From a virus (Duplodnaviria > Caudoviricetes), in IMG/VR virus record IMGVR_UViG_3300045115_000277, positions 1 through 62,467 of that record: DNA of 62,467 bases. One strand, 5' to 3'. The notes beneath the pieces are model-generated. The model worked only from the letters and a program-made list of their open reading frames with translations. It made no database searches and was not told where the DNA came from. The translations under genes and the position numbers were made by a program. The first letter of the stretch is position 1, and each line of letters begins with the position of its first letter. Below are positions 16,916-48,352 of the stretch, in pieces.

Positions 16916-16999
16916 TTGCAAGTGTCGCGCGGATAGGGCAAAATCCGCGTCGGCAATGCGCATGAGTGCTCTGCGGGATTCAACTCCACGAGGGCACCA
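16916..16999 (+). promoter_or_regulatory. Capsid leader: TTGCAA-17-CAAAAT promoter, GCGCATGAGTG box (16958-16968), SD-sequestering stem
   Basis: GUGCUCU 16966-72 can pair with AGGGCAC 16991-97; ATG at 17000. Confidence 0.75.
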
Positions 17000-18100
17000 A
17001 TGGGACAGACTGTCATCCCCTTCGGCGATGCCAAGGCGCAGAAGAAGTGGTCGGGCAAGCTCTTCATCGACACGGCGAAGAAGAGCTACTTCCAACGCAA
17101 ATTCGTCGGCGAAGGCGAAAACAACATCATCCAGCGCAAGACTGAGCTGGACAGCGACGCGGGCGATCGCGTCAGCTACGACCTTTCCGTCCAGCTGCGC
17201 GGCAAGCCGACGGCGGGCGACAATCGCGTCAAGGGCAAGGAAGAAAGCCTCAAATTCTACACGGACGAGGTTGCGATCGACCAGCTTCGTCACCCCGTTT
17301 CCGCCGGCGGCCGGATGACGCGCAAGCGCACCGCGCACAATCTCCGCAACGTGGCGAAGGACCGGCTCTCCGATTACTGGTCGCAGTATATCGACGAGCT
17401 CAACTTCATCTACCTGTCGGGCGCACGCGGCATCAACGAGGATTTCATCGAGGACGCGGACTATACCGGCCATGCCGGTAATCCGATCCAGTCGCCGGAC
17501 TCCGAGCATATTCTGTTCGGCGGCGATGCCACCTCGAAGGGGACCATCAGTTCGGACGATGGCTTCACGCGTGAGCTTGTCGAGCGTGCATCGGTCCGGG
17601 CGCGCATGATGCGCGCGCTCAACCCCAAGACGGCGAACATGCTGCCGATCGATTTGAACGGCGAGCGCCACTACGTCATCCTCATGTCTCCCTTCCAGGA
17701 GTATAACATGCGGACCGAAGTGGGGGCCGCCGGCTGGATGGAAATCCAGAAGGCCGCTTCCGCCGCTGAGGGTAGGAACTCGCCGATCTTCAAGGGCGGG
17801 CTCGGCATGGTCAACAACGTCGTGCTCCATAGCCATGAATCGGTAATCCGGTTCAATGACTATGGCGCTGGCGCGAACCTCTCTGCCGCACGCGCCCTGT
17901 TCATGGGCCGCCAGGCGGGCGTGGTTGCCTACGGCTCCGCCGGCGGGCTCCGCTTCACCTGGAAGGAGGAAGTGGACGACTATGGCAACGAGCCAACCGT
18001 CGTCGCGGGCACCATCATCGGCGTGAAGAAAACCCGGTTCAACGGCAAGGATTTCGGCGTCATGGCGCTCGACACCTACGCACGAAACCCGGCCCAGTAA
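17000..18100 (+). CDS. Major capsid protein (N4 gp56 / DUF4043-like)
   Basis: KKWSGKLF...AGDRVSYDL...KGKEESLKFYTDEVAIDQLRH...NSPIFKGGLG...GVKKTRFNGKDFGV. Confidence 0.9.
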   Translation: MGQTVIPFGDAKAQKKWSGKLFIDTAKKSYFQRKFVGEGENNIIQRKTELDSDAGDRVSYDLSVQLRGKPTAGDNRVKGKEESLKFYTDEVAIDQLRHPVSAGGRMTRKRTAHNLRNVAKDRLSDYWSQYIDELNFIYLSGARGINEDFIEDADYTGHAGNPIQSPDSEHILFGGDATSKGTISSDDGFTRELVERASVRARMMRALNPKTANMLPIDLNGERHYVILMSPFQEYNMRTEVGAAGWMEIQKAASAAEGRNSPIFKGGLGMVNNVVLHSHESVIRFNDYGAGANLSAARALFMGRQAGVVAYGSAGGLRFTWKEEVDDYGNEPTVVAGTIIGVKKTRFNGKDFGVMALDTYARNPAQ

Positions 18101-18112
18101 GGAGCGGACGAC

Positions 18113-18556
18113 ATGGCAACGATCATCCATTCCAGGCACGCTTCCGGGACCGTGGCGACGCCCCGGCCGCAAACGGCTGGCGCTGTTCATGTGGCGAAGT
18201 TCCGGCACACTTTCTCGTCGGCGCTGGCTGCGGCCGCCATCCTCGAACTGGGCGTGCTTCCGGCATATGCCCATATCGTGGATTACAAGCTGATCCCCGA
18301 GGGCGACTTCGCGGGCGTTACAGCAAGCGGCGGCATCATGACCGGCGAACTCGGCGCAGACGACGATGCCCGCGATGCGGGCACGGAACTGTTCTCGGCC
18401 GCGACGGCGCTCGATGCCGTCCAGGCACCGGACAAGGCCGCCGCCTACAATGTCGCGCCGGTCGAGCAGGCGCGCGGGATCGGCCTTAAATTCAGCGGTC
18501 AGGTGGTCGCGAACGCGGCCAAGAAGCTGACCCTGATCGTCACCTACACGCAGTAG
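18113..18556 (+). CDS. Virion-associated (capsid decoration-like) protein
   Basis: Strong SD; directly after capsid and before a terminator hairpin. Confidence 0.6.
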   Translation: MATIIHSRHASGTVATPRPQTAGAVHVAKFRHTFSSALAAAAILELGVLPAYAHIVDYKLIPEGDFAGVTASGGIMTGELGADDDARDAGTELFSAATALDAVQAPDKAAAYNVAPVEQARGIGLKFSGQVVANAAKKLTLIVTYTQ

Positions 18557-18563
18557 GCGGCAC

Positions 18564-18601
18564 ACGGCGGGCGCTCTGCACAGCGCCCGCCGTCCCTTTC
18601 C
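18564..18601 (+). terminator. Putative intrinsic terminator/attenuator
   Basis: 12-bp perfect stem ACGGCGGGCGCT/AGCGCCCGCCGT followed by CCCTTTCC (weak U-tract). Confidence 0.6.
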
Positions 18602-18627
18602 CGTCACCCCGCCGGAAGGAGAGCGAC

Positions 18628-19362: not shown

Positions 19363-19366
19363 TCCC

Positions 19367-21397: not shown

Positions 21398-21399
21398 GC

Positions 21400-21452
21400 T
21401 ATAATGGTCCGGCAATCGCGCATGAGTGCGGTCTTATTCAAAGGCTGCGCAC
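21400..21452 (+). promoter_or_regulatory. Tailspike leader: TATAAT, box 21418-21428, 10-bp anti-SD stem
   Basis: GUGCGGUCUU 21426-35 can pair with AAGGCUGCGC 21441-50; ATG at 21453. Confidence 0.75.
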
Positions 21453-24176
21453 ATGCCCATTCTCGAAGGCTCTTCCTACGCGTCGTTCCTGATCCGCCTG
21501 TCACAGGCGGCGGACGAGATCGTCTCTGTTCAGTGGGCCACGGAGAAGGTGACGGCCGTTCCGGGCGTCGATTATGCCGACGCGAGCGGAACCGTCGAGT
21601 TCCTGCCGGGCGAGACGGAAAAGACCGTGCAGGTGCTCGTATACGGCCGCGCGCCGGGCGACACCAGCGAGCGCACCTTCCGCATCCGCGTTTTTCCCGC
21701 GCCCGACGTCATCCTGGGCGCGTCGATGCTGAACGCCGTGATCCGCGTCATCAACCAAGCCGGGGCGATCGTGACGGCCGTCACCGTGGCGAACGGGCCG
21801 GATGGCTTGAGCGCCTTCGAGCAGGCGAAGCTCCAGGGCTACGTCGGGACGCTGGCCGAATGGCTCGCGTCGCTCAAGGGCGAGGAGGGACGAGCCGCTA
21901 CGACCCAGATGTTCGAAGCGGGCCTCATTGATGCCGACGACGCCGAGGCTCTGTTCGCGCGCCTCGCTGCGACCGGCGGGCCCGCAGGCGGCTGGTATAA
22001 CAGCCTTGAAGCGGGCGCGGCCGATGTCGATGAAGGCGAAGGCTACTATGTCGCCACGCCCGAGGGTGACTTCTTCGCCGCGCAGAAGGTGGATGGCGTA
22101 GGTCGCAAGATCGTCGTCTTCGCTACCCACGCATCGTTCCGTAACAACGGCATCAACCTCTTTGACGAGGCGGTGGGCGATGGCGTGACGCTCGACCACG
22201 ACGCGCTGAACGACGTGATCGAGACGGCAAAGAACTGGGGTGTGGGCCTCATCAACTGCGGCGGCGCAGGCAAAACCTATCTGATCGGCGGCACGCCGGC
22301 GAAGGTCGACGCCAATGACGGCCAGAACCGCTATCTGGCTCGGCTCTTCTCCAACCTCACGTTCCGCGGCAACGGCCCTGGCTCCCGGCCGACGTTCAAG
22401 ATGAAGGGCGGCTATGAGCATCCCGGCGTCTTGTTCGGCGATCGCTGGTGGGATGGAGAGACGGTCGAGAATATCGCCTTCGAGAATATCGCCTTCGACG
22501 GCAACATGGCCGCGCAGATCATCCCCAACTATCCGGTCGGAACGCCCGACAACAATATCGACCAGCATCAGCGCGCGATCGGCCTGCTGCGGGCGAAGAA
22601 CCTGCATGTGCGCAATTGCCTGTTCCGCCATTGGCGCGGCGATGGCGTCGCCATGTCGACCTACACCTATGTCGATGATGATGACCCCATCACCTATTCG
22701 AGCCAGCTGACTGTCGAGGATTGCGAGTTCTTCGACATCTTCTCGATCGGGATCAGCTTCGACGGCTTCCAGATGCGGTCGCGCGGCAACTATTTCCACG
22801 GTGACGGCTACTGGGTCGGTGCCATCAGCTGCGAGAGCCTTTCAACGCGCGGCCGCATTCAGGAAATCTGGTCGATCGCCGACTATTTCGACTTTCGGGA
22901 CGGCCTCTCGCCCACGGCGGCAACGGTGCGCGACTATGCCACCAATTCAGCCCAGGCGCTCGCTGCGCGGCGGCACTTCCGCCCGGCGATCGCGCTTTCG
23001 GGCAATTACTACACGCAGAACCCCGGCAACGTCTTTGGCGGGCAGTTCGGTCGTGTCAGCATCATACACCCGAAGGTCCGGCAAGGCAGCATCCTTGCGG
23101 GCGGATTCGAACGCGTGTTCATCGACGCGCCGGACATCGAAAACACCTACGAAGACATCTCGAAAATCTGGCCCTCGCGGCCCCACGCCATCACCATCAC
23201 GCCGGCCGCCGGCGCGAACGCTGTCACCGGCCTGTCGAGGGCGATCGTCCGCAATGCGGTCATCAACCATGATCTGAGCTACCACGGCATCTATGCGTCG
23301 GCGATCGACGACATCGAGATCAGCGGCGGCAGCATCACCGGCCCGCGCACGGCGGCGATCCGGCTGGAGGACTGCGCGGGCTCCGTCTCCAATATCAAGA
23401 TCGCGGACTATGGCCTGAAGACCAACCGCGCCTACTGGCTCCCGCTCTTCGCGAACGAAGGCGGCATGACCCAGGATCAGAAGAACGCCGCGGCCGACGC
23501 GCTTGTCGGCTCGACCGGCGCTGCCGTGACGCTCTTCGGCTCGAAGGGCGACATCACGATCAGCGATGTGCGCGCGCTCGACACGCGGACCGGCGATGCC
23601 GTTAAGTCGGAATATGCGGTCTACGCCAATGTCGACACCAGCGACATTGTGCGGATCCGCGACGTCAACGCGCGGGGCATGCTCGCCATCAAGGACGTCA
23701 ACAATGCCGCCCTCGTGAGCGGTGTGATGGAGAACACATTCCGGGTCTGGAAGACGAACGCCAAGGTGGAGATCGGCGGCGGGCTGACGAGCTACGGCAA
23801 CCCCGAATTCATCAACGCGGCCGACGATCTCAGCGTCAAGCTGCGCGCGCCCCAGGCGAAGAACCGGACGCTCTCGTTCGTCGACGAGAACGATCATCTC
23901 GAAGCGCAAATCGTGCACACGGCCGACGGCACGCTCCAGATGGTCATGTTCAACGACGGGACGCCGGTCAACGCGCCTCTCGCTCTGCGCATCGACGGCA
24001 CCATGAAGGCCAACTGGACGTGGGAGACCCCGCTCCAGCTGATTGCCGATGCCGGCGACATGTCGTTCTGGCTCTGGGCAGACGACGACAAAAGGTTGCG
24101 CATCAAAAGCGCCCGGCCGGCCGGCAGCACGGACGGCGAACTGGTCGGCGATCAGACCGACACTCCCACACCATAA
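21453..24176 (+). CDS. Tailspike 1: Calx-beta domain plus right-handed beta-helix (depolymerase-like)
   Basis: ATEKVTAVPGVDY...GTVEFLPGETEKTVQV; AVGDGVTLDHDALN; NIAFDGN beta-helix rungs. Confidence 0.8.
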   Translation: MPILEGSSYASFLIRLSQAADEIVSVQWATEKVTAVPGVDYADASGTVEFLPGETEKTVQVLVYGRAPGDTSERTFRIRVFPAPDVILGASMLNAVIRVINQAGAIVTAVTVANGPDGLSAFEQAKLQGYVGTLAEWLASLKGEEGRAATTQMFEAGLIDADDAEALFARLAATGGPAGGWYNSLEAGAADVDEGEGYYVATPEGDFFAAQKVDGVGRKIVVFATHASFRNNGINLFDEAVGDGVTLDHDALNDVIETAKNWGVGLINCGGAGKTYLIGGTPAKVDANDGQNRYLARLFSNLTFRGNGPGSRPTFKMKGGYEHPGVLFGDRWWDGETVENIAFENIAFDGNMAAQIIPNYPVGTPDNNIDQHQRAIGLLRAKNLHVRNCLFRHWRGDGVAMSTYTYVDDDDPITYSSQLTVEDCEFFDIFSIGISFDGFQMRSRGNYFHGDGYWVGAISCESLSTRGRIQEIWSIADYFDFRDGLSPTAATVRDYATNSAQALAARRHFRPAIALSGNYYTQNPGNVFGGQFGRVSIIHPKVRQGSILAGGFERVFIDAPDIENTYEDISKIWPSRPHAITITPAAGANAVTGLSRAIVRNAVINHDLSYHGIYASAIDDIEISGGSITGPRTAAIRLEDCAGSVSNIKIADYGLKTNRAYWLPLFANEGGMTQDQKNAAADALVGSTGAAVTLFGSKGDITISDVRALDTRTGDAVKSEYAVYANVDTSDIVRIRDVNARGMLAIKDVNNAALVSGVMENTFRVWKTNAKVEIGGGLTSYGNPEFINAADDLSVKLRAPQAKNRTLSFVDENDHLEAQIVHTADGTLQMVMFNDGTPVNAPLALRIDGTMKANWTWETPLQLIADAGDMSFWLWADDDKRLRIKSARPAGSTDGELVGDQTDTPTP

Positions 24177-31035: not shown

Positions 31036-31048
31036 CGCAGTTATGCGC

Positions 31049-31103
31049 TATGATACCGGCACGCGCATGAGTGCGGTTCCTCAATCACGGACCCCCTGCG
31101 CGC
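31049..31103 (+). promoter_or_regulatory. GNAT/ejection operon leader: TATGAT, box 31063-31073, alternative stem
   Basis: GUGCGG 31071-76 can pair with CUGCGC 31096-101, and UCC with GGA; ATG at 31104. Confidence 0.7.
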
Positions 31104-33902: not shown

Positions 33903-33922
33903 CAGCCTCCCCATGATCGGGC

Positions 33923-33988
33923 TAGGATAGGCGCAGCCGCGCATGAGTGTGGTCTTCATCGCAAGACCCCTCATCGCGAGTGCACGCC
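33923..33988 (+). promoter_or_regulatory. Giant-gene leader: TAGGAT, box 33939-33949, long alternative stem
   Basis: AUGAG 33943-47/CUCAU 33970-74 and GGUCUU 33951-56/AAGACC 33963-68. Confidence 0.7.
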
Positions 33989-36900: not shown

Positions 36901-39900
36901 GACGGCACAGGCTCCGACGCCGGCCGCGCAAGATGTGCCGCCCGCGTCGGAGCCAAAGCCTTCCGTCAGGCGCGAGACCGACAAGAAAAACCAGAACCCA
37001 TACGTGCGTAACGGCGAGCGTTACACGCTGACCGCAGACGTCGATTATCTGCGTGCCGGCGGCGCGTACAAGGTCGAAAGCGCCGGTAAAAAGAGCGCCT
37101 TTTTCGCCAATCTTGAAACTGACGGTCGCACATCAGTCCAAAACTGGCGGATCGAGCGAGCGCTGAAGGATGGCGTGATGAGGCGGGTGGATGATCCCGC
37201 GCCTCGCCCCTCCGCCCGACCCGCGCCTGCCAAGGAAGACGTGCCGCGCCTTATCGAAGAAGGGTTCGCCGCGAACCGGGCGGTCCTCAAGAATTTCAAG
37301 AAGGGGGACGCCGTGGAGTTCGACCACGGCAACTTCTATCGCGACGGCCGCTCGCGCACATTCTCCGGCACTGTCGACGTCGTGCAGAGCAAGGAGCAAG
37401 GCACGATTCGCGTCGTGTCCGAAAGCGGTGCCGCCTATTCCGTGCAGGCGCGCAATCTGCGGCATCGCAAGTCGGACGACACGCAGTCGCCCACCCGGCA
37501 GTTCGAAGGCAACAAGCTGTTCACGGCCGACAAGGTCGAGGCGGCAAGGGCGCGGCTCAAGGAGAAGATGAACCGCATCAACAGCGGCATCGACCCGGAA
37601 GTGCTGCTCGACGGCATCGTCATCACAGGCGCGTATATCGAGGCGGGCGTGCGCAAGTTCGGCGAATACGCCGCCGCTATGCGCGCGGACTTTGGCGACC
37701 GCATCAACCCTTACCTCCTCTCCTTCTGGGAGGGCGCGCGCAACTATCCGGGGCTGGACACCGCCGGCATGTCGTCGCCCGAGGAATCGCGCGCCGCACA
37801 TGCCGACCTGCTGTCGCCCGGTCTGCCGTCGCAAGAAGCGATTGCGCTCGGGACAGAGGTGGCGAAGCCCAAGCGGAAGAAGGCTGCGTCTACGTCGCGC
37901 ACGCTGCGCGACGACTGGGGCGTCGACCATATCGACGGCTGGACGCCGATCGAGGGCGGGCAAAATGCGGAGACGGATTTTGGCCTGAAGGGCGGTGTCA
38001 AGGATGCCTTCCTCGCCGACGCCACCGCCTACATGCGCGCCGTCGCGGCGACGCTTCGGCCGCTGGGCTTTTCGCCCCACGTCGGCAGCAAGGGCAAGGA
38101 GGCAAACCCTGTTTCGCGCAACGCCGCCGGTCCGGCTGTTTCGGGTGACGTCAGCCTCCACCTTCGGCACGCAAGCGGAGCGAACGTCTATGCGACCATC
38201 GGCGCGACGTCGATGCGGGGAGCCGTTCCGACGAACAGCGCGGGCGTCTCCATCATGTATCGCGTCTCGCGAAAAGACGGCGACAAGCAGGCCACGGCTG
38301 GTGTAAACCGGTGGGCGCCCGCCGACCTCAGCGCTGTCGATCTTGCCGACACGATCGCCTGGGAAGTCGGCCGGGGCAAGCCGGAGCTCACTCGCGATGT
38401 CGCAGAACCCGAACCAGCTGGACAAGGCCGCGATCGAAGCGGAATTCCGACGCCTGAAGCAGGACGGCGTAATGGAGACGATCCCGCTGCGCGACCGGAT
38501 CTTGGCGACCTGGCAGAAGGACAGCCCGAGGATGTGGGCGAACCTGCAATCGCAGGGCCTGACGGAGAAGATGGCGTTCGTGGTGCAGGCCCGGATGTGG
38601 CAGCGGCAGGACGAGCTGATGAAGGCGGGCCTGCCGATGACGGACGCGCGCGAGGAAGCGGAACGCGAGGAACTGCTGCTGGAGCCCGAGACGCAGGAGC
38701 CGGACGACAGCGACCTGCCGACGACGTTGCAGGACGCGCCCCCGTATCTCAAGAGCCAGTGGCGCGAGCAGATGGCCCTGCTAAGCGACGACGCGCCGAC
38801 AGCGTAGGCGAGCCTGATCTATTTCAGGATGCGCCGGAGCTTTCCGCTGCGCCCCTCGCGCCGCTCAGCCCGGCAAAGACCGGCCCCGGTAATTTCCACA
38901 TCGCCAATCCGCTGGAGATTGTTGGCGGCGGACCGGTAGCGCGGTTCGACCGCAACCGTCAGGCGATCGAAACCTACAACGCGATCAGGGACGAGGGGCG
39001 CGCCGCCACCGCGGAGGAGCAGCGCATCCTCGCCGGCTACACGGGCTGGGGAAGTTTCGGGCAGGAGCTATTCCAAGGGACGTGGGCGCGTCCCATGCCC
39101 AAGGACAGCTGGCAGGAGCGCGATCGCTGGCTGCGCGACCATCTGGGCAAGGAGGAATGGGAGAGCGCGCAGCGGTCCATCACCAATGCCCACTATACCG
39201 ATCCTCCAACCGTCATGGCGATGTGGGCGATGATGCAGCGCATGGGCTTCAAAGGTGGCCGCGTGCTCGAACCGTCCATGGGCATTGGCAATTTCTTCGG
39301 CATGATGCCGGCGGACCTGCAAAGTCGGTCCCAGCTAGCCGGGATCGAGCTCGACAGCCTGACGGGCGGCATGGCCCAGCTGCTCTACCCGGACGCCAAT
39401 GTCCGCGTGATGGGCTATCAGGAGTCGCGCACGCCCGACGACTTCTACGATGTCGTCATCGGCAACTGGCCGTTCGAGAACACCGTAATCGCCGACCGGC
39501 TCTATGATCGCCTGTCGCCCTATCTTCACGACTATTTCTTCCTGAAAGCGCTCGACCAGGTGCGGCCGGGCGGCATCGTCATGGGTATCACGTCGTCCGG
39601 CTCGATGGACAAGAAGGCGACCGGCGTCCGGCGCGAGCTGGCGCGAAAGGGCGAGTTGGTCGCAGCCTTCCGCCTGCCCTCCGGCGCGTTCGCCGAATAT
39701 GCCGGCACGAAGGTGGTCACGGACATCGTCATCCTGCGCAAGCGCGTCGAGCCGATCAGCCTCGCGGATGGAGAGGGCTGGATCAACAGCGTGCCCTATC
39801 AGACCCCTAACGGCGAAGTGCACATCAACGAGTATTACGTCGCCAATCCCTCGCATGTGATCGGAACGATCGACTTCGGCCACGGCACCACGCGCGGCCA

Positions 39901-42900
39901 ACCGGGAATGATCGTGCATCGGCCGGACGACATGGCCGAGCAACTCCAGCGCCTCATCCAGACAGTCCCGCAGGACGCCTATGCGACGGAGGCGCGAACC
40001 AAGCATATCAGCTTCGTGGCAAACCACACCGCTGACCGCGAAGGCGCTCTCACGAAGACCAAGGACGGGCTGTTCATCGTGCGCGGCGAGCATCTTGCTC
40101 CTGCGGCGGAGGTTGAGCGATATGCCGTCAAGGACGCGGCCAAGACCGCGCAGCGCGTCGATCAGCTGGAGCAGCTGGTGGACATGCGTCGCGCCTATGC
40201 GACGCTGATCGATGCCGAGCGGTCCGGCGACGCGGGGCCGGCGCGCAAGGCGCTGAAAGCGAGCTACGACGCTTTCACCAAGGCGCATGGCAAGCTCGCG
40301 GATGCGTTCGGCCTCGCCTATCTCCGCAAGATCGACGATCCCTTCTATCCGGCGCTGGCGGCGCTGGAGATCGACGGCAAGCCGGCCGCGATCCTGACCC
40401 GCAGCACGACGCGACCCGCACCGTCGATCGACAATCCGTCCATCGCCGAGGCGTTCGTCCTGGCGCGCAACAGCACGGTCAATCCGTCGCTCGACGACAT
40501 CGCGCAGCGTGCGCGGGTGGGCCGTGACGAGGCCAAGGCGGAGCTGCTCTCGACCGGTGCCGTGTTCGAGCTTCCCAACGGCGATGTCGCGCCCTCCGAC
40601 ATGTATCTGTCGGGCAATGTGCGCGAGAAGCTGCGACAGGCCAAGGCGGCGGTCGCGGAGGGGATGGCCCACCTTCAGCGCAACGTCGATGCACTGGCGG
40701 CCGTCGTGCCGGCGGACGTGCCCTATTTCAAGATTGAGACCCAGCTGGGCGCGACATGGATTTCGCCCTCCATCTATGCCGAGTTCGTCGGCCACATGCT
40801 GGGCCTGCCCAACGGCAACGATGTCGAGGTGCGTTACACCAGCGGCAGGTGGGCCGTGCGGCTGGAAGACCGGATCAAGAACCGGCCGGAAGCGCGCACG
40901 GGCTTCGGCACCGACGAATATAGCTTCCAGCGCCTCGTCAACGCCGCCTTCAGCAACCAGACCGTGACCATCCGCCGCCGCGACAGCGAGGGCGGGCAAT
41001 ATGTCGATCATGCCGCCACCGAAGAGGTGAACGGCAAGATCGCCGAAATGCGCACCAAGTTCGCCGACTGGCTGTGGAGCGATCCCGAGCGCCGCGTGGC
41101 GGTCGAGGCTGAGTATAACGAGGTTCGCAACGCGTTCGCGACGCCGCGCTTCGACGGCTCGTTCCTGCGGTTCGAGGGCATGGCGCTTTCGCTCGGCAAT
41201 GGCCCGTTCGACCTTCGCCAGCATCAGGCGGACGCCATCTGGCGCGCGCTCGTGTCGCGCCGGTCGCTCAACGCGCACGAAGTCGGCACCGGCAAGACCT
41301 TCACCATGGGCGGCATCGCGGTGGAAAGCCGGCGCTATGGCATCGCCCGCAAGCCGCTGATCTTTGCCCACAACGCCAACAGCAAGAGCGTGGCGGCCGA
41401 AATCCAGCAGATGTATCCTGCCGCCAAGATCCTCTATATCGACAATCTGACGCCGGCGACCATCGACGTGAAGATGCGCCAGATCGCGAACGATGACTGG
41501 GATGCCGTCGTCGTGCCGCACAGCCTCATCGACCGCTTCGCCTTCCGCGAAGAAACGCTGATGGACATGGCGCGCGAGGAAATCGCCGCGCTTGAGGAGG
41601 AAGCCTACGCCGCGGCGGCCGACGACGGCGCGACGCTCAAGGACGAAATGCTGGACGATCCCGAGGAGCTAAAAAAGCTCCGCTCTCCGACCGCCAAGGA
41701 ACTGGTGAAGCAGCGCCAGCGCATTATCGAGACGATCCGCAAGCAGTCGCATCGAGCCTCGCGCGAGGGCGCCATCTCCTTCGAGGAACTGGGCGTCGAC
41801 ATGGTGATGGTGGACGAGGCGCACGAGTTCAAGAAGCCGCCCATCAGCACGCGCATGAAGATGAAGGGGCTCAACACCTCGACGTCGGACCGCTCCATCG
41901 CTCTCTCCTTCCTGACGCGCTACGTCCGCGCGCAGAACGGCGGGGGCAACGTCCACCTGTTCACGGGCACGCCGGTCACGAACACGCTGACCGAAGTCTT
42001 CCACATGATGCGCTACATCATGCAGGAGGAGATGCAGGCCGCCGGCATCGACCAGTGGGACGGCTGGTTCGGCTCGTTCGCGCGCGAGGTGCTCGACGTC
42101 GAGCAGAACGCCGCCGCTGAATATGAAGCGGTGACGCGGCTCGCCGGGTTCATCAACGTGCCCGAGCTGCGGCGGATGATCGGCCAGTATATGGACACGG
42201 TCTTCGCGTCCGACATGCCGGAAATGCAGCCCCGCCGCACGAGATCGGGCAAGACCATGTCCGACGAGCTCACGGAAGCCGAGCGCGCGGAACTGCTGAA
42301 CGGGCGGACTGAGGGCGCGGCCGACCGTCCCTACAAGAAGGTCATCAACGTCACGTCCGACCTGACGCCGGCGCAGAAGGTGATTTTCGAGGAACTGCGC
42401 GGCTATGCCCGCGCCTGGCGTTCTATGTCCGGCAAGGAGCGACGCGAGGCAATGGCGGCCGGTGCGCCGGAATCGCCGATCATCACCGAGGGGCTGGCCA
42501 ACAAGGCCAGTTTCGACGTGCGTCTTTATGACGGCGAAGCAATCGCAGGACAGGAAGGTAAGATTGCCGACGACGAGGGCAGCAAGGCGTCCAGAGTGGT
42601 CGCGAACGTCAGGGAAATCTACGACAGTTCGCCGCTCGCCACCCAGGTCATTTTCGCCGAACAGGGGTTCTCGAACCGCGTGACGCGCAGTCTCGGCCGG
42701 GACGCCGATGGCAACCGGCAAACGAAGACGATTCCCTACTTCTCGACCATCCGCGACATCGTGGAGCGCCTTGTCGCGTCAGGCATCCCGCGCGCCGAGA
42801 TCGCGATCGTCGACGGCTCCACGACGAAGGACAAGCGCAAGGAGATTGCGCTGGCGATGAACGCGGCGACGATCCGCGTCGTCATCGGCAGCACCGGGAC

Positions 42901-45900
42901 GCTCGGCGTGGGCGTGAACATGCAGAAGAACCTGCGCGCCATGCACCATATGGACGCACCATGGATGCCGGGCGACCTGGAGCAGCGCAACGGGCGCGGG
43001 CAGCGGCAGGGCAACCAGTGGAACACCGTCCTCGAATATCGCTACCTGACCGACCGGCTGGACGGCCGGCGCTGGCAGGTGCTGGCGATTAAGCAGCGCT
43101 TCATCACCGCCTTCCTCAAGGCCGACGACAGCGCGCGCGTGATCGAGGGCGAGGCAGCGGCCGACGAGCAGAGCGACATCCTCCAGTCCTTCGCCGAAGC
43201 GGCCGGCGACCCGCGCATCCTGATCCGCGAGAAGCTGCGCAAGCAGCTTGACGGGGCGCAGCGGCGCGAGCGCCTCCATACGCAGGGGATCGCCAACGCG
43301 CTGGGTCAGGCTCGGCTGCTCACGAAGGCGGCGGACGACACCGAGGCCGACCTGGCCGACATCGACCGGCGTGGCGCGGTCGCGGCGGTGGACGCGCTCG
43401 TCGCCGCGAACGCGGGCAAAGGCTTCTCCATCACGGTCGACGGCAAGCGGCACGAGAAGCGCAAGGACGCGGACGACGCGATCGGCGACTGGGCCGCGTT
43501 CAATATGCGTGTGGGCGACGACGCGCGCGCGATTGGCCGTTTCGGCGAGCACGAATTGATGCTGGCATGGCCGGCGAACTCGGCCGAGCCCGAACTGCGC
43601 ATGACGATCGAGGGGCGCAAGTTCAGCGGCGGTTCGGTGCAAGGGCTTGAACAGTCGCTGCGCAAATTCTCGGCCGATGTCGAGCGCAGGCGGGGCCAGC
43701 TTGCCGAGCAGCGCGCGACCGTGGGACGTCTGGAAGCCGTAGCAAACGAGCCTTTCCATCTCGCGGCCGATCTCGACCGCTATGCCAAGGCGCTGACGGA
43801 CCTTGAGGCCGACATCCAGGCCAATCCGGTTCCCCCGCCCGCCTGGCTGCGCACCGGCGCGCCGGTCGACACGCCTGTCTTCTGGAAGGGTGCGGAGCTC
43901 ACCGTCGCGGGCCATCGCTGGACGGCGGAGGGTTGGTTCGTGCTGGCGAACGACGCCCGGGGCGACGTCGTCGTGCCCTATCTGGAGGCGAAGGACGCGC
44001 AGGGGATCAACCTCTATGAGGAGCGGCCGTTCGAAGCGCCGCAGTTGATCGAGAAGGAGGTGAAGACCGACCCGGCGCAGAGCGAGGAGAACCCGGCCGC
44101 CTACAGCATCGGCGCGCCGCGCGGCGGCGGCTTCACCTCGCCGGACGGCTTGCGGCAGCATCTGGAGGCAAGCCGCCTGGGCAGCTCCATCAAGGCGATG
44201 CTCGACGCCGGCAAGATCGTCCTGCACGCGGACGCGACGACACTGCCGATCGGCGCGCCGCGTGCGAGCATCCGCGACTTCCTCGACGGCGAAGCTGTCG
44301 CGACGCTGAGCGGGCAGGAGTTCGCGCCCGACGGCCGGCCGCTGACCGTCAAGGTGACGCAATGGTATGCGGAGCGTGGCGACGCGATCGTGGACACGCC
44401 CAACATCGGCCCGGTGACGCTCGATGCCGTGTCGGTAAAGAACTCCGTCTCCCACGGGCTGGGGCGAAGCAAATCCGCCGCCTTCGCTGCGGTGCCGGAA
44501 GTTCTTCGGCGTGGCAGGATCGTGCATAGCGAGCCGTGGCGTGGCGCGCGCGATGGCGCGATGGCCTATTTTGTCGCCGCCCCTATCCGGCTTGGCGACC
44601 AGGACATGATCGAAATCGTGATGATCCGGTCCGATTCGCACGGCGCGCGCATGTATGTCCATGAGGTGGCGGTGCGTGAAGTGCTCCGGCTCCCCGCCGT
44701 CAAGACCAGTGCAGATGCAGCCGAAGCTGGGGTGCGTGCTGGAGCGGGTGCCGGAGCAATTCGGACCATACTCGAAAATGTTTACGGAGCCAATACTATC
44801 GCGGACAAGGGGCGGAAGTCCGTCGATCAGGCCGCCGACATTCAGGGCGTCACGGCACCTGACGGAAGCATTCACCTTGTGGCGAACCAGCTTTCCAGCC
44901 GCACCGCCCTGCCCGTCCTGCTGCATGAAATGTTCCATGCCGGCGTGCGCCCGCTCATCGGCAATGCCAGTTGGACGGCGGCGCTTGGCCGACTGTCGGC
45001 GCTCTATCGGTCTGCCGCGCTGCGCGAGTCGACCGCCGACCGGGGCAACTCGGCTTATTGGCGCAAGGCGCTGGCGCGCGTGGACGTCGCCGCGCCGCCG
45101 CCCGGACAGGTCGTCGAGGAATTTGCCGCCTATGCACTGGAAGAGCGCGCGCTTGCGCCAGCCGGCGTGGGCGAGGCGCTGGACCGGCTGGTCGGCGCGC
45201 TCAAGGCGTGGCTGCTGCGGCGCTTCGGCGTGCAATTGGGGAAGATCACGCCGGCACAGCTTCAGGCACTCGCCACGGCCGCGCTGCGATCGGGCGTCAC
45301 CGCTCCTGTCGCTGACACGGCGTTCAGCCGCGTTGTGCCGGCGGCCGAGGACATCGACGCCGCGACCCCAGGCATGATCGCCAACCTCGTGACGAAGGCG
45401 ATGGACGGCAATATGAGCGTGCTCGGCGTCATTCCGCTGCGCCCACTGCTGTCCGAACTGGCCTCCCGCCTGCCCGCCGCTCGCGAATATCTCGCGCTCA
45501 AGCAGGCGATGGACCAGACGCGCGACAGCTGGCACGCGAAAGCCGACGCTGTGGCGCAGCCGTGGCTCAAGTTCCGCGTCCTGCACAAGGCCGAGAACGG
45601 CAAGCTGATGGACCTGATGCACGAGGCGACGCTCGCCGGCGTCGATCCCGCAAAGCCGTTCGCGTCGATCCTGACGCCGGCCGACCGTAAGGTGCTGGCG
45701 GACGGACCGGGCTCGGACATCTACGACGCCGCGGCGGAGAAGGCCGCCCGCGACGAGACGCGAAAGATCGCGCACGCGCGGCTGGTATCCCAGTTCACGG
45801 CGCTGACGGGGGAGGCGCAGCAGATCTACGCAACCGTGCGCGACACATATCGCGCGCTCTCCGAGGCCTTCGAACAGACGCTGCTCGACAACCTGTCCAA

Positions 45901-48175
45901 GGCGCTCGACATCAAGTTTCGTCAGGCGAAGCGGGCTTATGACGCGGAGCTGATCCGCATCGCCGACACCGACATGGCGCCAGAGGCGCGCGAACTCGCC
46001 CAGGCGCAAGCCGAACGCGAATGGGCGAAGCAGCGGCAGATGCAGGGGTGGGCCAAGGGCGCACGCATGACGCGCCTGCGCGCTTTCTTCGAGACCAACA
46101 ATCTGGCTGGCCCCTATTTCCCCCTCGCCCGCTTCGGCAACTTCTTCGTGACGGTGCGGGACAAGGAGACCGATCAGGTCATCAGCTTCTCTCGGTTCGA
46201 GCGGCCGGGCGAACAGCAGGCCTTCGCCAAGCAGATGAAGGAAGCCGGGCACATCGCGACGATGGGCGTGCTCGATGACGGCGGCGCGCTCAAGGCGCAG
46301 GTGGACGCCCGCTTCGTCACCGACATCGAATCAATCCTCGAAGGCGCGGACGTCAGCGACTCCGTACGGGACGCGGTCTGGCAGCGCTGGCTCGAAACCA
46401 TGCCCGACATGTCGATCCGAACGAGCCGCATCCACCGCAAGGGGCGCGCCGGCTTCTCGTCCGACGCGATCCGCGCTTTCGGGCATCACATGTTCCACGG
46501 CTCGCATCAGCTTGCGCGCCTCAAATACGCGCTCGATCTGGACGAGACCGTCGCGCTTGCGCGCGATCAGGCCAAGACGATGCCGGACCCGGTCCGCGCT
46601 GGCCTGATCGTCAACGAGATGGCCCGGCGCAATCAGTTCGTGATGAACCCGACAGGCGGGCCGCTTGCGCAGGCTCTGACGTCGGCCGCGTTCGTCTACC
46701 ACCTCTCGGTCAGCCCGGCGGCGGCGCTGGTGAACACGGCGCAGACCGCGGTGATGGGTATTCCGATCCTCGCGGCCTACGACAAGCGCGCCGGGCGCGG
46801 CGCGGCGCGGGCAGCGTTCGAACTCAACAAGGCGCTGCTCGACTTCACCGCGGGCAAGGGGCACGCGGCGCGCGCCGGGCGGCTCAGCGCGCAAGAGCGT
46901 GACGCCATGGAGCAAGCGTATGACACGGGCCTGATCGAGCGCACGCAATCCCACGATCTCGCAGGCGTGGGAGAAACCGGGGTGGAGTATAGCCCGGCTC
47001 GCACCAAGGTCATGGGTGCCATCAGCTGGGCGTTCCACCACACCGAGCGGATGAACCGCGAGGTAACGTTCCTCGCTGCCTATCGCATGGCCCGGCGGAA
47101 CGACGAACCGCACAACATGGCGATCGATCGGGCCGCCGAACTGACGTGGAAAATCCACTTCGACTACCAGAACACCAGCCGTCCGCGCATCATGCAGTCC
47201 GACACGGCCAAGGTGCTGCTGACCTTCCGCAACTTCCAGGTGAACATGCTCTGGAGGCTGTTCCGCGACGCCCATCAGGCGGTCAAAGGGCGGAGCAAGG
47301 ATGAGCGTCGCGAAGCACGCGTTCAGCTTGCCGGCGTGACGGGCATGATGATGCTCTCGGCCGGCGTGCGGGGCACCTGGCTCTACGGCGTCGCGATGGT
47401 GCTCGCTTCCATGTTCTTCGGCGATGATGCCGAGGACAAGTTCTCCAGCGCCATAATTGAGGCTCTGGGGCATCGGCTGGGCGGGATGGCACTTAACGGC
47501 GTTCCCGGCGATGTGCTGGGTATCGACCTGTCGCAGCGCATCGGTATGCCGGACCTCTGGTTCCGCTCGCCGGATCGCGAGCTCGAAGGCGCGACGGAGT
47601 TCGACTATTGGGCCATGCAGGTGCTTGGCGCGGGGGTCGGCATTCTCCGCAACGCGTGGACGGGGGTGTCGATGATCGCGGAGGGCAACACCTACCGCGG
47701 TGTCGAGACGATCATGCCCAAGTTCGCCAAGGATTTGATGCGCTCCTATCGCTACATGAGCGAGGGCGCACGCACGCTCAAGGGCGACCCTATCGTGGAG
47801 GACATGGACGTCGCTTCGGCCCTGAAGCAGGCGCTCGGCTTCACGCCGGCGGAACTGACGGAGCGCTACGACCAGAACCGGTCGATGAAGAACCACGAAC
47901 AGCGCATCCTTGATGAGCGCAGCCGCATCCTGTCGGACTTCGACCAAGCGCAGCGGGAGGGGCAATCGACTGCCGCGGTCGTTGACGCGATTGACAGCTT
48001 CAACCGCGCCAACCCGGACTATCCGATCACGGCGCGATCGCTGCGGCAGTCGATGCGGTCGCGGCAGCAGATGCGCGAGCGGAAGATCGGCGGCGTCTAT
48101 CTAAATCCGCGCCTCGCCGACCGGATGCGCGATGAAGCGCCCGAGCTGATCTACAGCGAGGACGACGACGAATGA
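33980..48175 (+). CDS. Giant DarB-like polyvalent virion protein (SLT, pyrophosphatase-like, N6-MTase, SNF2 helicase, nuclease-like, HExxH peptidase, PLxRFG); start probably GTG 33980 or TTG 33989
   Basis: QESRYNP...AKGLMQF; GADGDHVDVF...FDEHKVMVGF; LEPSMGIGNF, IGNWPF; HEVGTGKT, VDEAH, QRNGRGQRQGN; LLHEMFH; YFPLARFG. Confidence 0.9.
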   Translation: MHALAKSIFQLSPLDAETQRQAEADSASLSAPELPAIGAPPPLSIPALPAAPASAGSSVGRVPGAVKPPAALISAFEQAALKYDIPINIIMALGEQESRYNPMALGTPTQWGRAKGLMQFLDDTAARLGINPFDPLQSIDAAAMQLRQRLNKGYSMADAVKEHFAGPDRKKWGVKTARYGEEVLGRAARLREELAPRYERGPWYSPGAKPMKTDGRPVSADAIGAVIGGTKKAPPSLAATFENPHSAKSVIARYQSESQRLPNEGGISATRQPTGTLANALRGAATSSVEAFRQAGQGVRMQFEDAAGPTIDAWVERNMPGAPGLSLDEQRAAFGKTNTEQAFARSQDRAAAATPKFDSWLADAAYGGLQSIIQTAPGIATGIAFGPAAGLATLGGQTQAQSYAKYRSRGASPGMALAGGLGEGSVEIATEMLPMGWLAEKFGTVGLKRFMSEYLLREMPTEQVATFLQDAIDTAIANPDKTWGDFWDERADAAGKTAVATLMQSGAFAGANAALARVAREEVDQALGHPAPAASAVPAAPAERAVAPAAPAPEPAAPAPPPPAGPLGRALAQAPAPEPVQPPASAIVPDPVDPMTPLTPLTLATDGAEYSVRLLGETEDAIWVKTDSGEELQIPRADVASGAVQLLGPEAAPPQAVKEDLTAEAAPEQPAPAQVEPAAPAEAEAVDPETGEILAVPDAPTERPAPVAAAPKPVRSKPEPLDGMDEPQLRERLKYLATQARTNAGWTKPLLAERKRVEAAIDAMNAAQSGDDATAAIKEAEAKAATSPLNDRPEPTQAQKDAGNYAKGHVSIGGLDVSIENPAGTSRRPEWPPLKHSYGYVKRSEGADGDHVDVFLGPKAGDPTNPVFVVDQVNKDGTFDEHKVMVGFGDKGAARRGYLANYEKGWSGLGDITEMSFEAFRDWVKDGGRTNAPAGTKVGAATPSRDEASEQPVTATVSVSEPPVDAPPPPDQSPTAQAPTPAAQDVPPASEPKPSVRRETDKKNQNPYVRNGERYTLTADVDYLRAGGAYKVESAGKKSAFFANLETDGRTSVQNWRIERALKDGVMRRVDDPAPRPSARPAPAKEDVPRLIEEGFAANRAVLKNFKKGDAVEFDHGNFYRDGRSRTFSGTVDVVQSKEQGTIRVVSESGAAYSVQARNLRHRKSDDTQSPTRQFEGNKLFTADKVEAARARLKEKMNRINSGIDPEVLLDGIVITGAYIEAGVRKFGEYAAAMRADFGDRINPYLLSFWEGARNYPGLDTAGMSSPEESRAAHADLLSPGLPSQEAIALGTEVAKPKRKKAASTSRTLRDDWGVDHIDGWTPIEGGQNAETDFGLKGGVKDAFLADATAYMRAVAATLRPLGFSPHVGSKGKEANPVSRNAAGPAVSGDVSLHLRHASGANVYATIGATSMRGAVPTNSAGVSIMYRVSRKDGDKQATAGVNRWAPADLSAVDLADTIAWEVGRGKPELTRDVAEPEPAGQGRDRSGIPTPEAGRRNGDDPAARPDLGDLAEGQPEDVGEPAIAGPDGEDGVRGAGPDVAAAGRADEGGPADDGRARGSGTRGTAAGARDAGAGRQRPADDVAGRAPVSQEPVARADGPAKRRRADSVGEPDLFQDAPELSAAPLAPLSPAKTGPGNFHIANPLEIVGGGPVARFDRNRQAIETYNAIRDEGRAATAEEQRILAGYTGWGSFGQELFQGTWARPMPKDSWQERDRWLRDHLGKEEWESAQRSITNAHYTDPPTVMAMWAMMQRMGFKGGRVLEPSMGIGNFFGMMPADLQSRSQLAGIELDSLTGGMAQLLYPDANVRVMGYQESRTPDDFYDVVIGNWPFENTVIADRLYDRLSPYLHDYFFLKALDQVRPGGIVMGITSSGSMDKKATGVRRELARKGELVAAFRLPSGAFAEYAGTKVVTDIVILRKRVEPISLADGEGWINSVPYQTPNGEVHINEYYVANPSHVIGTIDFGHGTTRGQPGMIVHRPDDMAEQLQRLIQTVPQDAYATEARTKHISFVANHTADREGALTKTKDGLFIVRGEHLAPAAEVERYAVKDAAKTAQRVDQLEQLVDMRRAYATLIDAERSGDAGPARKALKASYDAFTKAHGKLADAFGLAYLRKIDDPFYPALAALEIDGKPAAILTRSTTRPAPSIDNPSIAEAFVLARNSTVNPSLDDIAQRARVGRDEAKAELLSTGAVFELPNGDVAPSDMYLSGNVREKLRQAKAAVAEGMAHLQRNVDALAAVVPADVPYFKIETQLGATWISPSIYAEFVGHMLGLPNGNDVEVRYTSGRWAVRLEDRIKNRPEARTGFGTDEYSFQRLVNAAFSNQTVTIRRRDSEGGQYVDHAATEEVNGKIAEMRTKFADWLWSDPERRVAVEAEYNEVRNAFATPRFDGSFLRFEGMALSLGNGPFDLRQHQADAIWRALVSRRSLNAHEVGTGKTFTMGGIAVESRRYGIARKPLIFAHNANSKSVAAEIQQMYPAAKILYIDNLTPATIDVKMRQIANDDWDAVVVPHSLIDRFAFREETLMDMAREEIAALEEEAYAAAADDGATLKDEMLDDPEELKKLRSPTAKELVKQRQRIIETIRKQSHRASREGAISFEELGVDMVMVDEAHEFKKPPISTRMKMKGLNTSTSDRSIALSFLTRYVRAQNGGGNVHLFTGTPVTNTLTEVFHMMRYIMQEEMQAAGIDQWDGWFGSFAREVLDVEQNAAAEYEAVTRLAGFINVPELRRMIGQYMDTVFASDMPEMQPRRTRSGKTMSDELTEAERAELLNGRTEGAADRPYKKVINVTSDLTPAQKVIFEELRGYARAWRSMSGKERREAMAAGAPESPIITEGLANKASFDVRLYDGEAIAGQEGKIADDEGSKASRVVANVREIYDSSPLATQVIFAEQGFSNRVTRSLGRDADGNRQTKTIPYFSTIRDIVERLVASGIPRAEIAIVDGSTTKDKRKEIALAMNAATIRVVIGSTGTLGVGVNMQKNLRAMHHMDAPWMPGDLEQRNGRGQRQGNQWNTVLEYRYLTDRLDGRRWQVLAIKQRFITAFLKADDSARVIEGEAAADEQSDILQSFAEAAGDPRILIREKLRKQLDGAQRRERLHTQGIANALGQARLLTKAADDTEADLADIDRRGAVAAVDALVAANAGKGFSITVDGKRHEKRKDADDAIGDWAAFNMRVGDDARAIGRFGEHELMLAWPANSAEPELRMTIEGRKFSGGSVQGLEQSLRKFSADVERRRGQLAEQRATVGRLEAVANEPFHLAADLDRYAKALTDLEADIQANPVPPPAWLRTGAPVDTPVFWKGAELTVAGHRWTAEGWFVLANDARGDVVVPYLEAKDAQGINLYEERPFEAPQLIEKEVKTDPAQSEENPAAYSIGAPRGGGFTSPDGLRQHLEASRLGSSIKAMLDAGKIVLHADATTLPIGAPRASIRDFLDGEAVATLSGQEFAPDGRPLTVKVTQWYAERGDAIVDTPNIGPVTLDAVSVKNSVSHGLGRSKSAAFAAVPEVLRRGRIVHSEPWRGARDGAMAYFVAAPIRLGDQDMIEIVMIRSDSHGARMYVHEVAVREVLRLPAVKTSADAAEAGVRAGAGAGAIRTILENVYGANTIADKGRKSVDQAADIQGVTAPDGSIHLVANQLSSRTALPVLLHEMFHAGVRPLIGNASWTAALGRLSALYRSAALRESTADRGNSAYWRKALARVDVAAPPPGQVVEEFAAYALEERALAPAGVGEALDRLVGALKAWLLRRFGVQLGKITPAQLQALATAALRSGVTAPVADTAFSRVVPAAEDIDAATPGMIANLVTKAMDGNMSVLGVIPLRPLLSELASRLPAAREYLALKQAMDQTRDSWHAKADAVAQPWLKFRVLHKAENGKLMDLMHEATLAGVDPAKPFASILTPADRKVLADGPGSDIYDAAAEKAARDETRKIAHARLVSQFTALTGEAQQIYATVRDTYRALSEAFEQTLLDNLSKALDIKFRQAKRAYDAELIRIADTDMAPEARELAQAQAEREWAKQRQMQGWAKGARMTRLRAFFETNNLAGPYFPLARFGNFFVTVRDKETDQVISFSRFERPGEQQAFAKQMKEAGHIATMGVLDDGGALKAQVDARFVTDIESILEGADVSDSVRDAVWQRWLETMPDMSIRTSRIHRKGRAGFSSDAIRAFGHHMFHGSHQLARLKYALDLDETVALARDQAKTMPDPVRAGLIVNEMARRNQFVMNPTGGPLAQALTSAAFVYHLSVSPAAALVNTAQTAVMGIPILAAYDKRAGRGAARAAFELNKALLDFTAGKGHAARAGRLSAQERDAMEQAYDTGLIERTQSHDLAGVGETGVEYSPARTKVMGAISWAFHHTERMNREVTFLAAYRMARRNDEPHNMAIDRAAELTWKIHFDYQNTSRPRIMQSDTAKVLLTFRNFQVNMLWRLFRDAHQAVKGRSKDERREARVQLAGVTGMMMLSAGVRGTWLYGVAMVLASMFFGDDAEDKFSSAIIEALGHRLGGMALNGVPGDVLGIDLSQRIGMPDLWFRSPDRELEGATEFDYWAMQVLGAGVGILRNAWTGVSMIAEGNTYRGVETIMPKFAKDLMRSYRYMSEGARTLKGDPIVEDMDVASALKQALGFTPAELTERYDQNRSMKNHEQRILDERSRILSDFDQAQREGQSTAAVVDAIDSFNRANPDYPITARSLRQSMRSRQQMRERKIGGVYLNPRLADRMRDEAPELIYSEDDDE
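38397..38807 (+). CDS. Putative nested gene (+1 frame) inside the giant gene, 136 aa
   Basis: GGAG SD, ATG 38397; natural helical sequence with mostly G/C third positions, while the host frame there is a G/A/D/R low-complexity linker. Confidence 0.65.
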   Translation: MSQNPNQLDKAAIEAEFRRLKQDGVMETIPLRDRILATWQKDSPRMWANLQSQGLTEKMAFVVQARMWQRQDELMKAGLPMTDAREEAEREELLLEPETQEPDDSDLPTTLQDAPPYLKSQWREQMALLSDDAPTA

Positions 48176-48183
48176 CGCTCAAT

Positions 48184-48210
48184 GGGGCCGGCGCGACCGG
48201 CCCCGCATTT
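48184..48210 (+). terminator. Putative terminator after the giant gene
   Basis: GGGGCCGG/CCGGCCCC stem followed by GCATTT. Confidence 0.55.
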
Positions 48211-48214
48211 GCGA

Positions 48215-48352
48215 TTGTGGCAACCCTGCTGATCGGCTAGATTCCGGTCTCATTCAATCGCGCATGAGTGCGGTCCAACAGGGCTGGCAACGTGACGCGA
48301 AATCTCTCCCACAACCTGCACATGCCGACGGCCGCCGAGCGGAGGCCGTCCT
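48215..48352 (+). promoter_or_regulatory. Lysis leader: TTGTGG-17-TAGATT, box 48260-48270, uORF and SD-hiding hairpin
   Basis: UGCGGUCC 48269-76/GGGCUGGCA 48281-89; GACGGCC 48327-33/GGCCGUC 48344-50 covers GGAGG. Confidence 0.7.

Follow-up and report, generated by a model that had tools for sequence, protein, structure and literature searches.

A short RNA box with two mutually exclusive predicted folds in five late-gene leaders of a Bcep22-like phage, and a neighbouring csrA-like gene as the candidate for its ligand

Five intergenic leaders in a Bcep22-like phage genome carry the same short box (GCGCATGAGTG), which can fold either into a small hairpin of its own or into a long hairpin whose opposite arm lies near, and often includes, a start codon. 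The window, by which we mean the whole stretch of DNA analysed here, is a 62,467-bp IMG/VR provirus (IMGVR_UViG_3300045115_000277) of the Bcep22-like podophage type, and its capsid region shares 70–75% DNA identity with Erwinia phage PEp14, Burkholderia phages JC1 and Bcep22, Sinorhizobium phage PBC5 and many Ralstonia phages. The alternative folds are very probably a selected feature, and the ligand of the box is probably the product of a csrA-like gene that lies immediately before the capsid leader. We are evenly divided on the full model, in which the long hairpin would close the start codon and capture of the box hairpin by the CsrA-like protein would open the message for translation. Given binding, we lean towards activation rather than repression.

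The box occurs exactly six times in the window, on the plus strand only (6905, 16958, 21418, 31063, 33939 and 48260), and the last five of these copies are situated in intergenic leaders. Each leader box is preceded by a promoter-like element whose −10 hexamer ends 8–16 nt upstream (13 nt for the capsid gene, 12 nt for the tailspike gene, 8 nt for the GNAT acetyltransferase gene and 10 nt for the giant gene); that of the lysis leader is TAGATT, 7/12. With this spacing the box is predicted to occupy approximately +2 to +10 of five separate late messages. A TTGCA-type −35 and an nAnAAT −10 recur 5′ of the capsid box in relatives, where the best promoter score averages 7.7 compared with 5.9 ± 0.9 at random positions. 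A search of the whole window, both strands, against Rfam 15 gave no matches at the gathering score. The features that bear on the box are as follows (ORF, open reading frame).

16735–16908, plus strand: csrA-like gene (57 aa, P0001), candidate box-binding protein, directly 5′ of the capsid leader
16916–16944, plus strand: promoter-like element of the capsid leader, TTGCAA-17-CAAAAT, 8/12
16958–17004, plus strand: capsid leader, with the box at 16958–16969 and the long hairpin at 16959–17004
17000–18100, plus strand: major capsid gene (PF13252 Phage_capsid_3, E = 7e-69)
21400–21405, plus strand: TATAAT, −10-like hexamer of the tailspike leader, 8/12, with a weak −35
21418–21458, plus strand: tailspike leader, with the box at 21418–21429
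21453–24176, plus strand: tailspike-like gene (907 aa, beta-helix; Beta_helix and Calx-beta matches)
31025–31054, plus strand: sigma-70-like promoter of the GNAT leader, TCGACA-18-TATGAT, 10/12
31063–31109, plus strand: GNAT leader, with the box at 31063–31074
31104–31544, plus strand: N-acetyltransferase (GNAT) gene (phrog_4470 acyl-CoA N-acyltransferase, E = 1e-42, query from 31107)
33899–33928, plus strand: sigma-70-like promoter of the giant gene, GTGACA-18-TAGGAT, 9/12
33939–33977, plus strand: giant-gene leader hairpin, with the box at 33939–33950
33989–48175, plus strand: giant polyvalent virion protein gene (4728 aa from UUG; SLT, InPase, Helicase_C, LPD3 and LPD39 domains)
48260–48298, plus strand: lysis-leader hairpin, with the box at 48260–48271, burying GUG 48292–48294
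48292–48363, plus strand: candidate 23-codon upstream ORF, read from sequence, opening at the buried GUG
From 48353: lysis cassette, comprising a 136-aa ORF (48353–48763) and an endolysin gene (48902–49579)

The UUG start of the giant gene at 33989 is fixed by a conserved N-terminus, MAKSIFQ, shared with two relatives (G001 and G002).

In fold 1 the box forms its own hairpin through the pairs G1–C12, C2–G11, G3–U10 and C4–G9 (stem GCGC/GUGC, loop AUGA; −3.2 kcal/mol). In fold 2, the long leader hairpin, the partner of the box's loop and 3′ half is a segment that differs from gene to gene and lies near, or includes, the start codon. Because the long helices occupy the loop and the 3′ stem of the box hairpin, the two folds cannot coexist. 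An earlier note on this DNA had listed a pairing between the box region and a different downstream sequence in each leader, and all five are present and belong to the minimum free energy (MFE) folds: GUGCUCU (16966–16972) with AGGGCAC (16991–16997) in the capsid leader; GUGCGGUCUU (21426–21435) with AAGGCUGCGC (21441–21450), a 10-bp helix, in the tailspike leader; GUGCGG/CUGCGC plus UCC/GGA in the GNAT leader; AUGAG/CUCAU plus GGUCUU/AAGACC in the giant-gene leader; and UGCGGUCC (48269–48276) with GGGCUGGCA (48281–48289) in the lysis leader. Four leaders have further pairings that reach a start codon. Specifically, the CAUG of the box pairs with the CAUG at the start codon of the tailspike (21453) and GNAT (31104) genes, its CAU pairs with the AUG of the capsid gene (17000), and its CAUG pairs with CGUG in the lysis leader (48292).

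The capsid hairpin consequently buries both the Shine–Dalgarno sequence (SD) GAGGG (16990–16994) and the AUG (17000–17002), the tailspike helix is extended by GCAUG/CAUGC and holds the AUG at 21453–21455, and the GNAT helix buries the AUG at 31104–31106. The claim that every stem covers or abuts the ribosome-binding region therefore agrees with the predicted folds of the capsid, tailspike and GNAT leaders and does not hold as worded for the giant-gene and lysis leaders. At least 55 nt separate the lysis stem from the ATG at 48353 downstream, and the one start codon inside the stem is the GUG that opens the candidate 23-codon ORF. This short ORF overruns the beginning of the 136-aa ORF (48353 onwards) by a few bases, its TGA occupying 48361–48363, an arrangement that looks like translational coupling, by which control at the box would be handed on to the lysis genes. 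The strong SD of the 136-aa ORF (GGAGG) sits in a separate local hairpin (region 48325–48355), and G001 has a 14-codon equivalent of the upstream ORF.

The long fold is predicted to prevail in free RNA. The MFE is −20.3 kcal/mol for the capsid leader, −21.5 for tailspike, −16.6 for GNAT and −17.4 for lysis, and the small hairpin has a predicted probability of no more than 0.0001. Pairing of 88–100% is predicted for the capsid, tailspike and GNAT start codons and for the lysis GUG, with the probability of being unpaired 0.12/0.01/0.01 for the three bases of the capsid AUG, 0.00 for tailspike, 0.02 for GNAT and 0.01 for the lysis GUG. When the box hairpin is forced, the capsid AUG is predicted to be released (0.87/0.82/0.56), and across the four start codons the probability of being unpaired becomes approximately 0.5–0.98, except for the G of the tailspike codon (0.11). 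Forcing the small hairpin costs 9.8 kcal/mol in the capsid leader, 12.1 in tailspike, 6.7 in GNAT, 6.1 in the giant-gene leader and 5.9 in lysis.

Within the window alone, statistical support for the stems is moderate. The MFE of each whole leader was compared with that of 200 shuffles, giving z scores of −2.72, −3.90, −1.13, −1.15 and −1.57 (here and below in the order capsid, tailspike, GNAT, giant gene, lysis), with 3, 0, 28, 21 and 14 of the 200 shuffles folding as well as the natural sequence; the sixth box copy, which doubles as an internal control, gave +0.49. Taken as whole leaders, then, the stems of the earlier note surpass shuffled controls in two of the five cases, capsid and tailspike, and fail to do so for GNAT, the giant gene and lysis. 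The duplex between the box and its downstream partner gave p = 0.017, 0.006, 0.093, 0.049 and 0.073 against shuffles, and p = 0.15, 0.011, 0.105, 0.038 and 0.083 against 2000 genomic segments. With the box held fixed and only the hairpin span considered, p was 0.012, 0.004, 0.18, 0.002 and 0.044, values that are flattered because the spans were picked after the folds had been seen. GNAT is the weakest case in all tests.

The sixth copy of the box stands apart from these leaders.

6909–7613: DNA methylase gene, with the sixth box copy (6905–6915, plus strand) on its start codon

This copy has no downstream complement, and its promoter score, 6/12, equals background. Five relatives were compared at the methylase start; none carries a complete box there, and one carries part of it. 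The copy was dropped from the system since it is not conserved and lacks both a complement and a promoter-like element; its presence there is probably coincidental. It sits at an ATGA stop/start overlap where, if it were bound, repression would be predicted.

Comparison with relatives carries most of the argument. A capsid-protein search of viral contigs yielded 45 loci (47–93% identity), whose capsid leaders contain box variants of the form GCGC-A-N-GA-(N)-GUGC with a 4-bp hairpin and a loop that is mostly AGGA. A loose 8-nt box pattern is found in 31 of the 33 unique capsid leaders with enough upstream sequence. The two exceptions, L008 and L017, have a csrA-like gene without a standard box; in them a CUAUGAC motif is followed by a long hairpin (GGCCUCUG.../...CAGAGGAC) that covers the leader from the SD up to the AUG.

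Among 31 unique box variants (47 instances), all four pairs of the small hairpin are possible in every one. Pair 1 is G–C in 28, G–U in two and A–U in one (A1–U12, in phage GP4); pair 3 is G–U in 27 and G–C in four; and pair 4 is C–G in 30 and U–G in one. The 12-nt and 13-nt forms of the box differ by one extra base, located in the loop only. Since the search pattern used outside capsid leaders demanded the 3′ half, this count is partly circular; the capsid-leader part of it is not. The loop starts AGGA in 18 variants, AUGA in nine and AAGA in four, so that A-N-G-A alone is constant. An F116-like record (G010, L192) and L123 have boxes with AAGA, AGGA and AUGA loops in one phage, which indicates that the second loop base can vary inside one genome. 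We looked among the homologues of the CsrA-like protein for a residue that tracks the loop variant (GGA, UGA or AGA) and found none.

The long helix is likewise maintained in relatives while its sequence changes. Of the unique capsid leaders, 27 of 31 surpass 500 shuffles at p < 0.05. Among 21 representatives, the mean energy is −17.6 kcal/mol when a box is matched to the downstream leader of the same phage and −13.1 kcal/mol when it is matched to that of another phage; the observed sum was reached in none of 20,000 permutations. The variable loop base (N6) and its distant partner, tabulated from the MFE folds of 35 leaders of which 27 are unique, form U–A in eight, G–C in eight, G–U in three and A–U in one, and N6 is unpaired in seven. 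G7 finds its partner 1–5 nt ahead of the AUG in 22 of these 35 and 15–18 nt ahead of it in three; in the other 10 it is unpaired. These partner tables and the permutation were used in place of pair counts from a MAFFT/RNAalifold alignment of capsid leaders, which was out of structural register. The suggestion in the earlier note that structure is conserved without sequence conservation is borne out for capsid leaders by the own-versus-swapped permutation and by the changes of N6 partner.

In the nearest relatives (G001, G002, L002 and L003) the other four leaders retain the fold with changed 3′ arms. The inner helix of the giant-gene leader is compensated, appearing as GGUCUU/AAGACC, GGUCUG/CAGACC or GGUCG/CGACC. 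In G001 the loop of the lysis box contains an additional C, with a matching G in the opposite arm, and an AUG is buried in the lysis leaders of both G001 and G002, as a GUG is in that of the window. The GNAT fold recurs in G001 with a different spacer. The tailspike fold is kept in L002, L003 and 10 more tailspike-type leaders, with an invariant outer helix and two compensated inner pairs. RNAalifold reports covariation in two of 13 pairs for the tailspike-type leaders, a low figure because the sequences were chosen for an identical box. These came from a scan for the exact 14-mer box that returned 119 contigs, mostly single hits in a coding-like context, of which 21 leader-like loci picked by eye were used. 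The more distant G003 and JC1 carry the box at the capsid leader only, and its spread to five leaders is therefore recent in the lineage of the window. These sequence comparisons support both the small hairpin and the long helix.

The csrA-like ORF tends to accompany the box. Iterated hidden Markov model searches recover it 5′ of the capsid gene at 33 loci, the window being one and the other 32 belonging to the 45 found in relatives. Most of the loci that lack it are fragmentary or do not extend far enough upstream, and in PBC5 the gene is located elsewhere. It is also present in nine of 10 other records that have the exact 14-mer box in a leader-like setting, where the one record without the gene is a fragment of 41% completeness and two of the records may represent the same phage, and in none of five large records whose 14-mer has a coding-like setting. 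Cultured phages with both gene and box are JC1, GP4, F116, PEp14 and Itty13. In F116 and an F116-like record, boxes without a promoter are found at gene junctions inside operons, a placement that favours a role at the RNA level. The two F116 (L190) boxes are at 1638–1649 and 2092–2103; one lies within the 3′ end of csrA ahead of the next gene, and the second supplies the SD (AGGAG) of the gene that follows it.

The 57-aa protein matches phrog_8397 ('CsrA-like regulator', E = 8.5e-12), and a profile of 22 phage homologues aligns over its full length with RsmE 2jpp (E = 2e-9; residues 1–62 with 1–59); all nine structural matches listed for this profile are CsrA/Rsm chains. RNA contacts in CsrA and RsmE are made by N-terminal Leu residues and Arg 44. 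L2 is present in 14 of the 22 homologues and R7 also in 14. At the site aligned with R44 the nearest relatives have K or R, and the window protein has an Arg one position earlier. The window protein ends in a proline-rich tail instead of the C-terminal helix.

Judged from its sequence, fold 1 with its A-N-G-A loop (mostly AGGA across Bcep22-like phages) has the shape of a CsrA/RsmE site. If the CsrA-like protein is its ligand, a simple order of events can be proposed. The box would be transcribed first, at the 5′ end of each late message (5′ ends as predicted above), and the protein would bind fold 1 as the box leaves the polymerase, before the 3′ arm has been made. Capture of fold 1 would block fold 2 and leave the start codon open, so that the virion and lysis genes could be translated; when the protein is absent the leader would close into fold 2. 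Two-state activation of this kind would explain why the message for the most abundant virion protein has kept a structure in which its start codon is predicted to be concealed, and an activator gene would be well placed where the regulator lies, within the head operon and immediately ahead of the capsid promoter. One report describes smaller plaques when a phage csrA homologue was knocked down (PMC11879866). Such an effect implies that the protein helps that phage, which also fits activation. Tentatively, the proposal may be taken further: the CsrA-like protein could be devoted to activating late translation and accept A-N-G-A loops in place of GGA, and in this lineage, with U now at the free loop position, its 12-nt operator would double as an anti-start-codon (CAU/AUG).

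Several observations weigh against two-state activation by the CsrA-like protein. As whole leaders, GNAT, giant gene and lysis are not individually better than shuffles, and the tailspike-type leaders are by-eye picks from 119 identical-box hits. In the giant-gene leader 11 nt lie between the end of the stem and the UUG at 33989, a start codon predicted to be open in the long fold. In PEp14, L009 and L011 the anti-box helix is 15–18 nt upstream of the AUG, leaving SD and AUG free, so that burial of the start region is common and not universal. The predicted switch to the small hairpin costs 5.9–12.1 kcal/mol, and a flip would probably have to occur during RNA synthesis. With respect to the protein, the match to PF02599 (CsrA) scores 23.7 bits (E = 3.4e-6), under the 27-bit Pfam cut-off; the residue aligned with RsmE R44 is Met; and just 15 of the 22 homologues have an R or K at position 43 or 44. 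All five window loops are AUGA and not the GGA that defines CsrA targets. Finally, at F116-type sites the box is the SD itself, and repression is predicted there.

Repression is the main rival to activation. A CsrA-like dimer might link the box hairpin to a further site at the SD, or it might stabilize a closed form, and so limit or delay the virion and lysis proteins. Repression likely applies at least at F116-type sites, where the AGGAG of the box is the SD; as the explanation of the window leaders we consider it unlikely. It is the usual action of CsrA proteins, as at glgC and hcnA, the RsmE–hcnA complex (2jpp) is the best structural match, and the SD of relatives often has a GGA 15–35 nt after the box. 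However, no second A-N-G-A hairpin was seen by eye at the SD of the window leaders, and a conserved helix that closes the start codon without protein would have no role in a purely repressive system. The capsid protein is moreover the product needed most late in infection, and knock-down of a phage csrA homologue harmed the phage (PMC11879866).

A second alternative, which we regard as quite improbable, dispenses with a protein flip altogether: the long hairpins would be 5′-terminal structures that stabilize the message or damp its translation, and the box would be kept for some other reason, for instance as the initially transcribed sequence of a shared promoter type or as a processing site. 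The long hairpins are indeed stable (−16.6 to −21.6 kcal/mol) and begin a few bases from the predicted RNA 5′ end, and the small hairpin is predicted never to form in free RNA. A plain hairpin, however, needs no exact 11–12-nt 5′ arm common to five unrelated leaders and to phages with 47–92% capsid identity, nor would it call for a small-hairpin stem that survives base changes and loop insertions. The variable distance from the −10 (8–16 nt in the window), the promoterless boxes inside operons and the tight co-occurrence with the csrA-like gene also speak against it.

A nut/boxB-like site that loads a phage antiterminator on RNA polymerase at the start of late transcripts is, we think, most improbable. 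The resemblance to boxB lies in a small hairpin with a GC stem and a purine-rich loop of 4–5 nt, just 3′ of promoters in a temperate phage, whereas covariation ties the box to the start-codon region and not to terminators, terminator-like sites between 16600 and 34100 number 12 compared with 11.3 in shuffles, and the conserved neighbour is a protein with the CsrA fold. That the stems are chance pairings in GC-rich DNA beside a repeated motif is scarcely credible: GNAT, giant gene and lysis were matched by 28, 21 and 14 of 200 shuffles, and p against the genomic background was 0.15 for capsid and 0.105 for GNAT, but all five z scores are negative where that of the control box is positive, relatives keep the folds with changed 3′ arms, and the capsid permutation and covariation tests also speak against chance.

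The remaining features of the window lie outside the proposed system. Upstream of the csrA-like gene are two head genes.

13122–15758: P22-like portal
15779–16699: scaffold-like ORF

Just 3′ of the giant-gene stop, at 48186–48206, is a GC-rich inverted repeat (GGGGCCGG...CCGGCCCC) with a T-containing tail, which may be a terminator dividing the giant gene from the lysis transcript. A gene for an S24-peptidase CI/LexA-type repressor (5643–6335, minus strand) stands beside early rightward genes. An island of low GC content at 50900–56000 (50–53% compared with approximately 65%) holds a Wzy_C O-antigen-ligase-like gene (50896–52371, minus strand) and a glycosyl hydrolase 71 gene (54366–55919), which are candidate lysogenic-conversion genes acting on surface polysaccharide. 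Next to these is a ThiF-family gene (55947–57035), and near the right end is a ParB-like gene (59995–61413). ARAGORN reports an 87-nt tRNA-Trp (60271–60357, minus strand) within the ParB-like ORF, likely a false call.

Genes for CsrA homologues are widespread in phages and, in the literature as far as we drew on it, are treated as morons or as tools for host manipulation. One paper describes phage csrA as a moron whose role is unknown (PMC9144972), another proposes suppression of CRISPR-Cas (PMC8450108), and a third surveys csrA genes on mobile elements (PMC7366521). We found no target of a phage CsrA in the phage's own leaders in the portions consulted of PMC9144972, PMC10269572, PMC7366521, PMC8450108 and PMC11879866, or in the titles and abstracts of other papers. 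The conserved operator in the capsid leader offers a concrete, testable target inside the phage for a csrA-like gene, and the idea can be tested directly because the cultured relatives JC1, GP4, F116, PEp14 and Itty13 carry both parts. If the CsrA-like protein is indeed a late activator that accepts A-N-G-A loops, the copying of one cassette onto five promoters would place the capsid, the tailspike, the acetyltransferase, the giant virion protein and lysis behind one protein-gated switch, and there would be a layer of late-gene control at translation rather than transcription. The series of AUGA, AAGA and AGGA loops would be a natural experiment on the need of the CsrA fold for GGA, and so compact a two-state leader could serve as a portable translational switch.

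Three known systems bear a partial likeness to these leaders. The N proteins of phages lambda and P22 read a small hairpin, boxB (nut), near the 5′ end of an operon and act on transcription elongation; the window likewise has a phage-specific small 5′ hairpin, but covariation here ties it to the start of translation. The Com protein of phage Mu, a zinc-finger protein that acts late, binds a hairpin upstream on mom mRNA and opens a stem that hides the start codon. Start codons are similarly predicted to be paired in the free capsid, tailspike, GNAT and lysis leaders, and not at the giant-gene UUG. This likeness is functional only and not one of family: the neighbouring candidate has the CsrA fold and is not a zinc-finger activator of the Com type, and Com serves one gene where the CsrA-fold candidate would serve several leaders. 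In E. coli, CsrA activates ymdA, moaA and flhDC by remodelling the leader or protecting its 5′ end. Those leaders share with ours the proposed logic, in which binding upstream frees a sequestered initiation region, and the location of the site at the 5′ end of the message. They differ in being single host genes with canonical GGA sites, whereas the window repeats one operator across five leaders of the phage, and the loop of that operator itself pairs with the start codon.

The closest resemblance is to the operators of CsrA, RsmA and RsmE, such as RsmE–hcnA (2jpp) and E. coli CsrA–glgC, which also combine a small CsrA-fold protein with a short-stem tetra- or pentaloop target of the (A/N)GGA type in a 5′ leader near the SD. 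In contrast to these, the window loops are AUGA and the family is constant only in A-N-G-A, the protein is without the C-terminal helix region and has Met at R44, the targets are the phage's own late genes, and the operator is complementary to the start region and does not overlap it. With a loop that fails the GGA test and a protein that falls under the Pfam cut-off, the box and its candidate ligand would represent a variant of the CsrA systems rather than a plain member of them.

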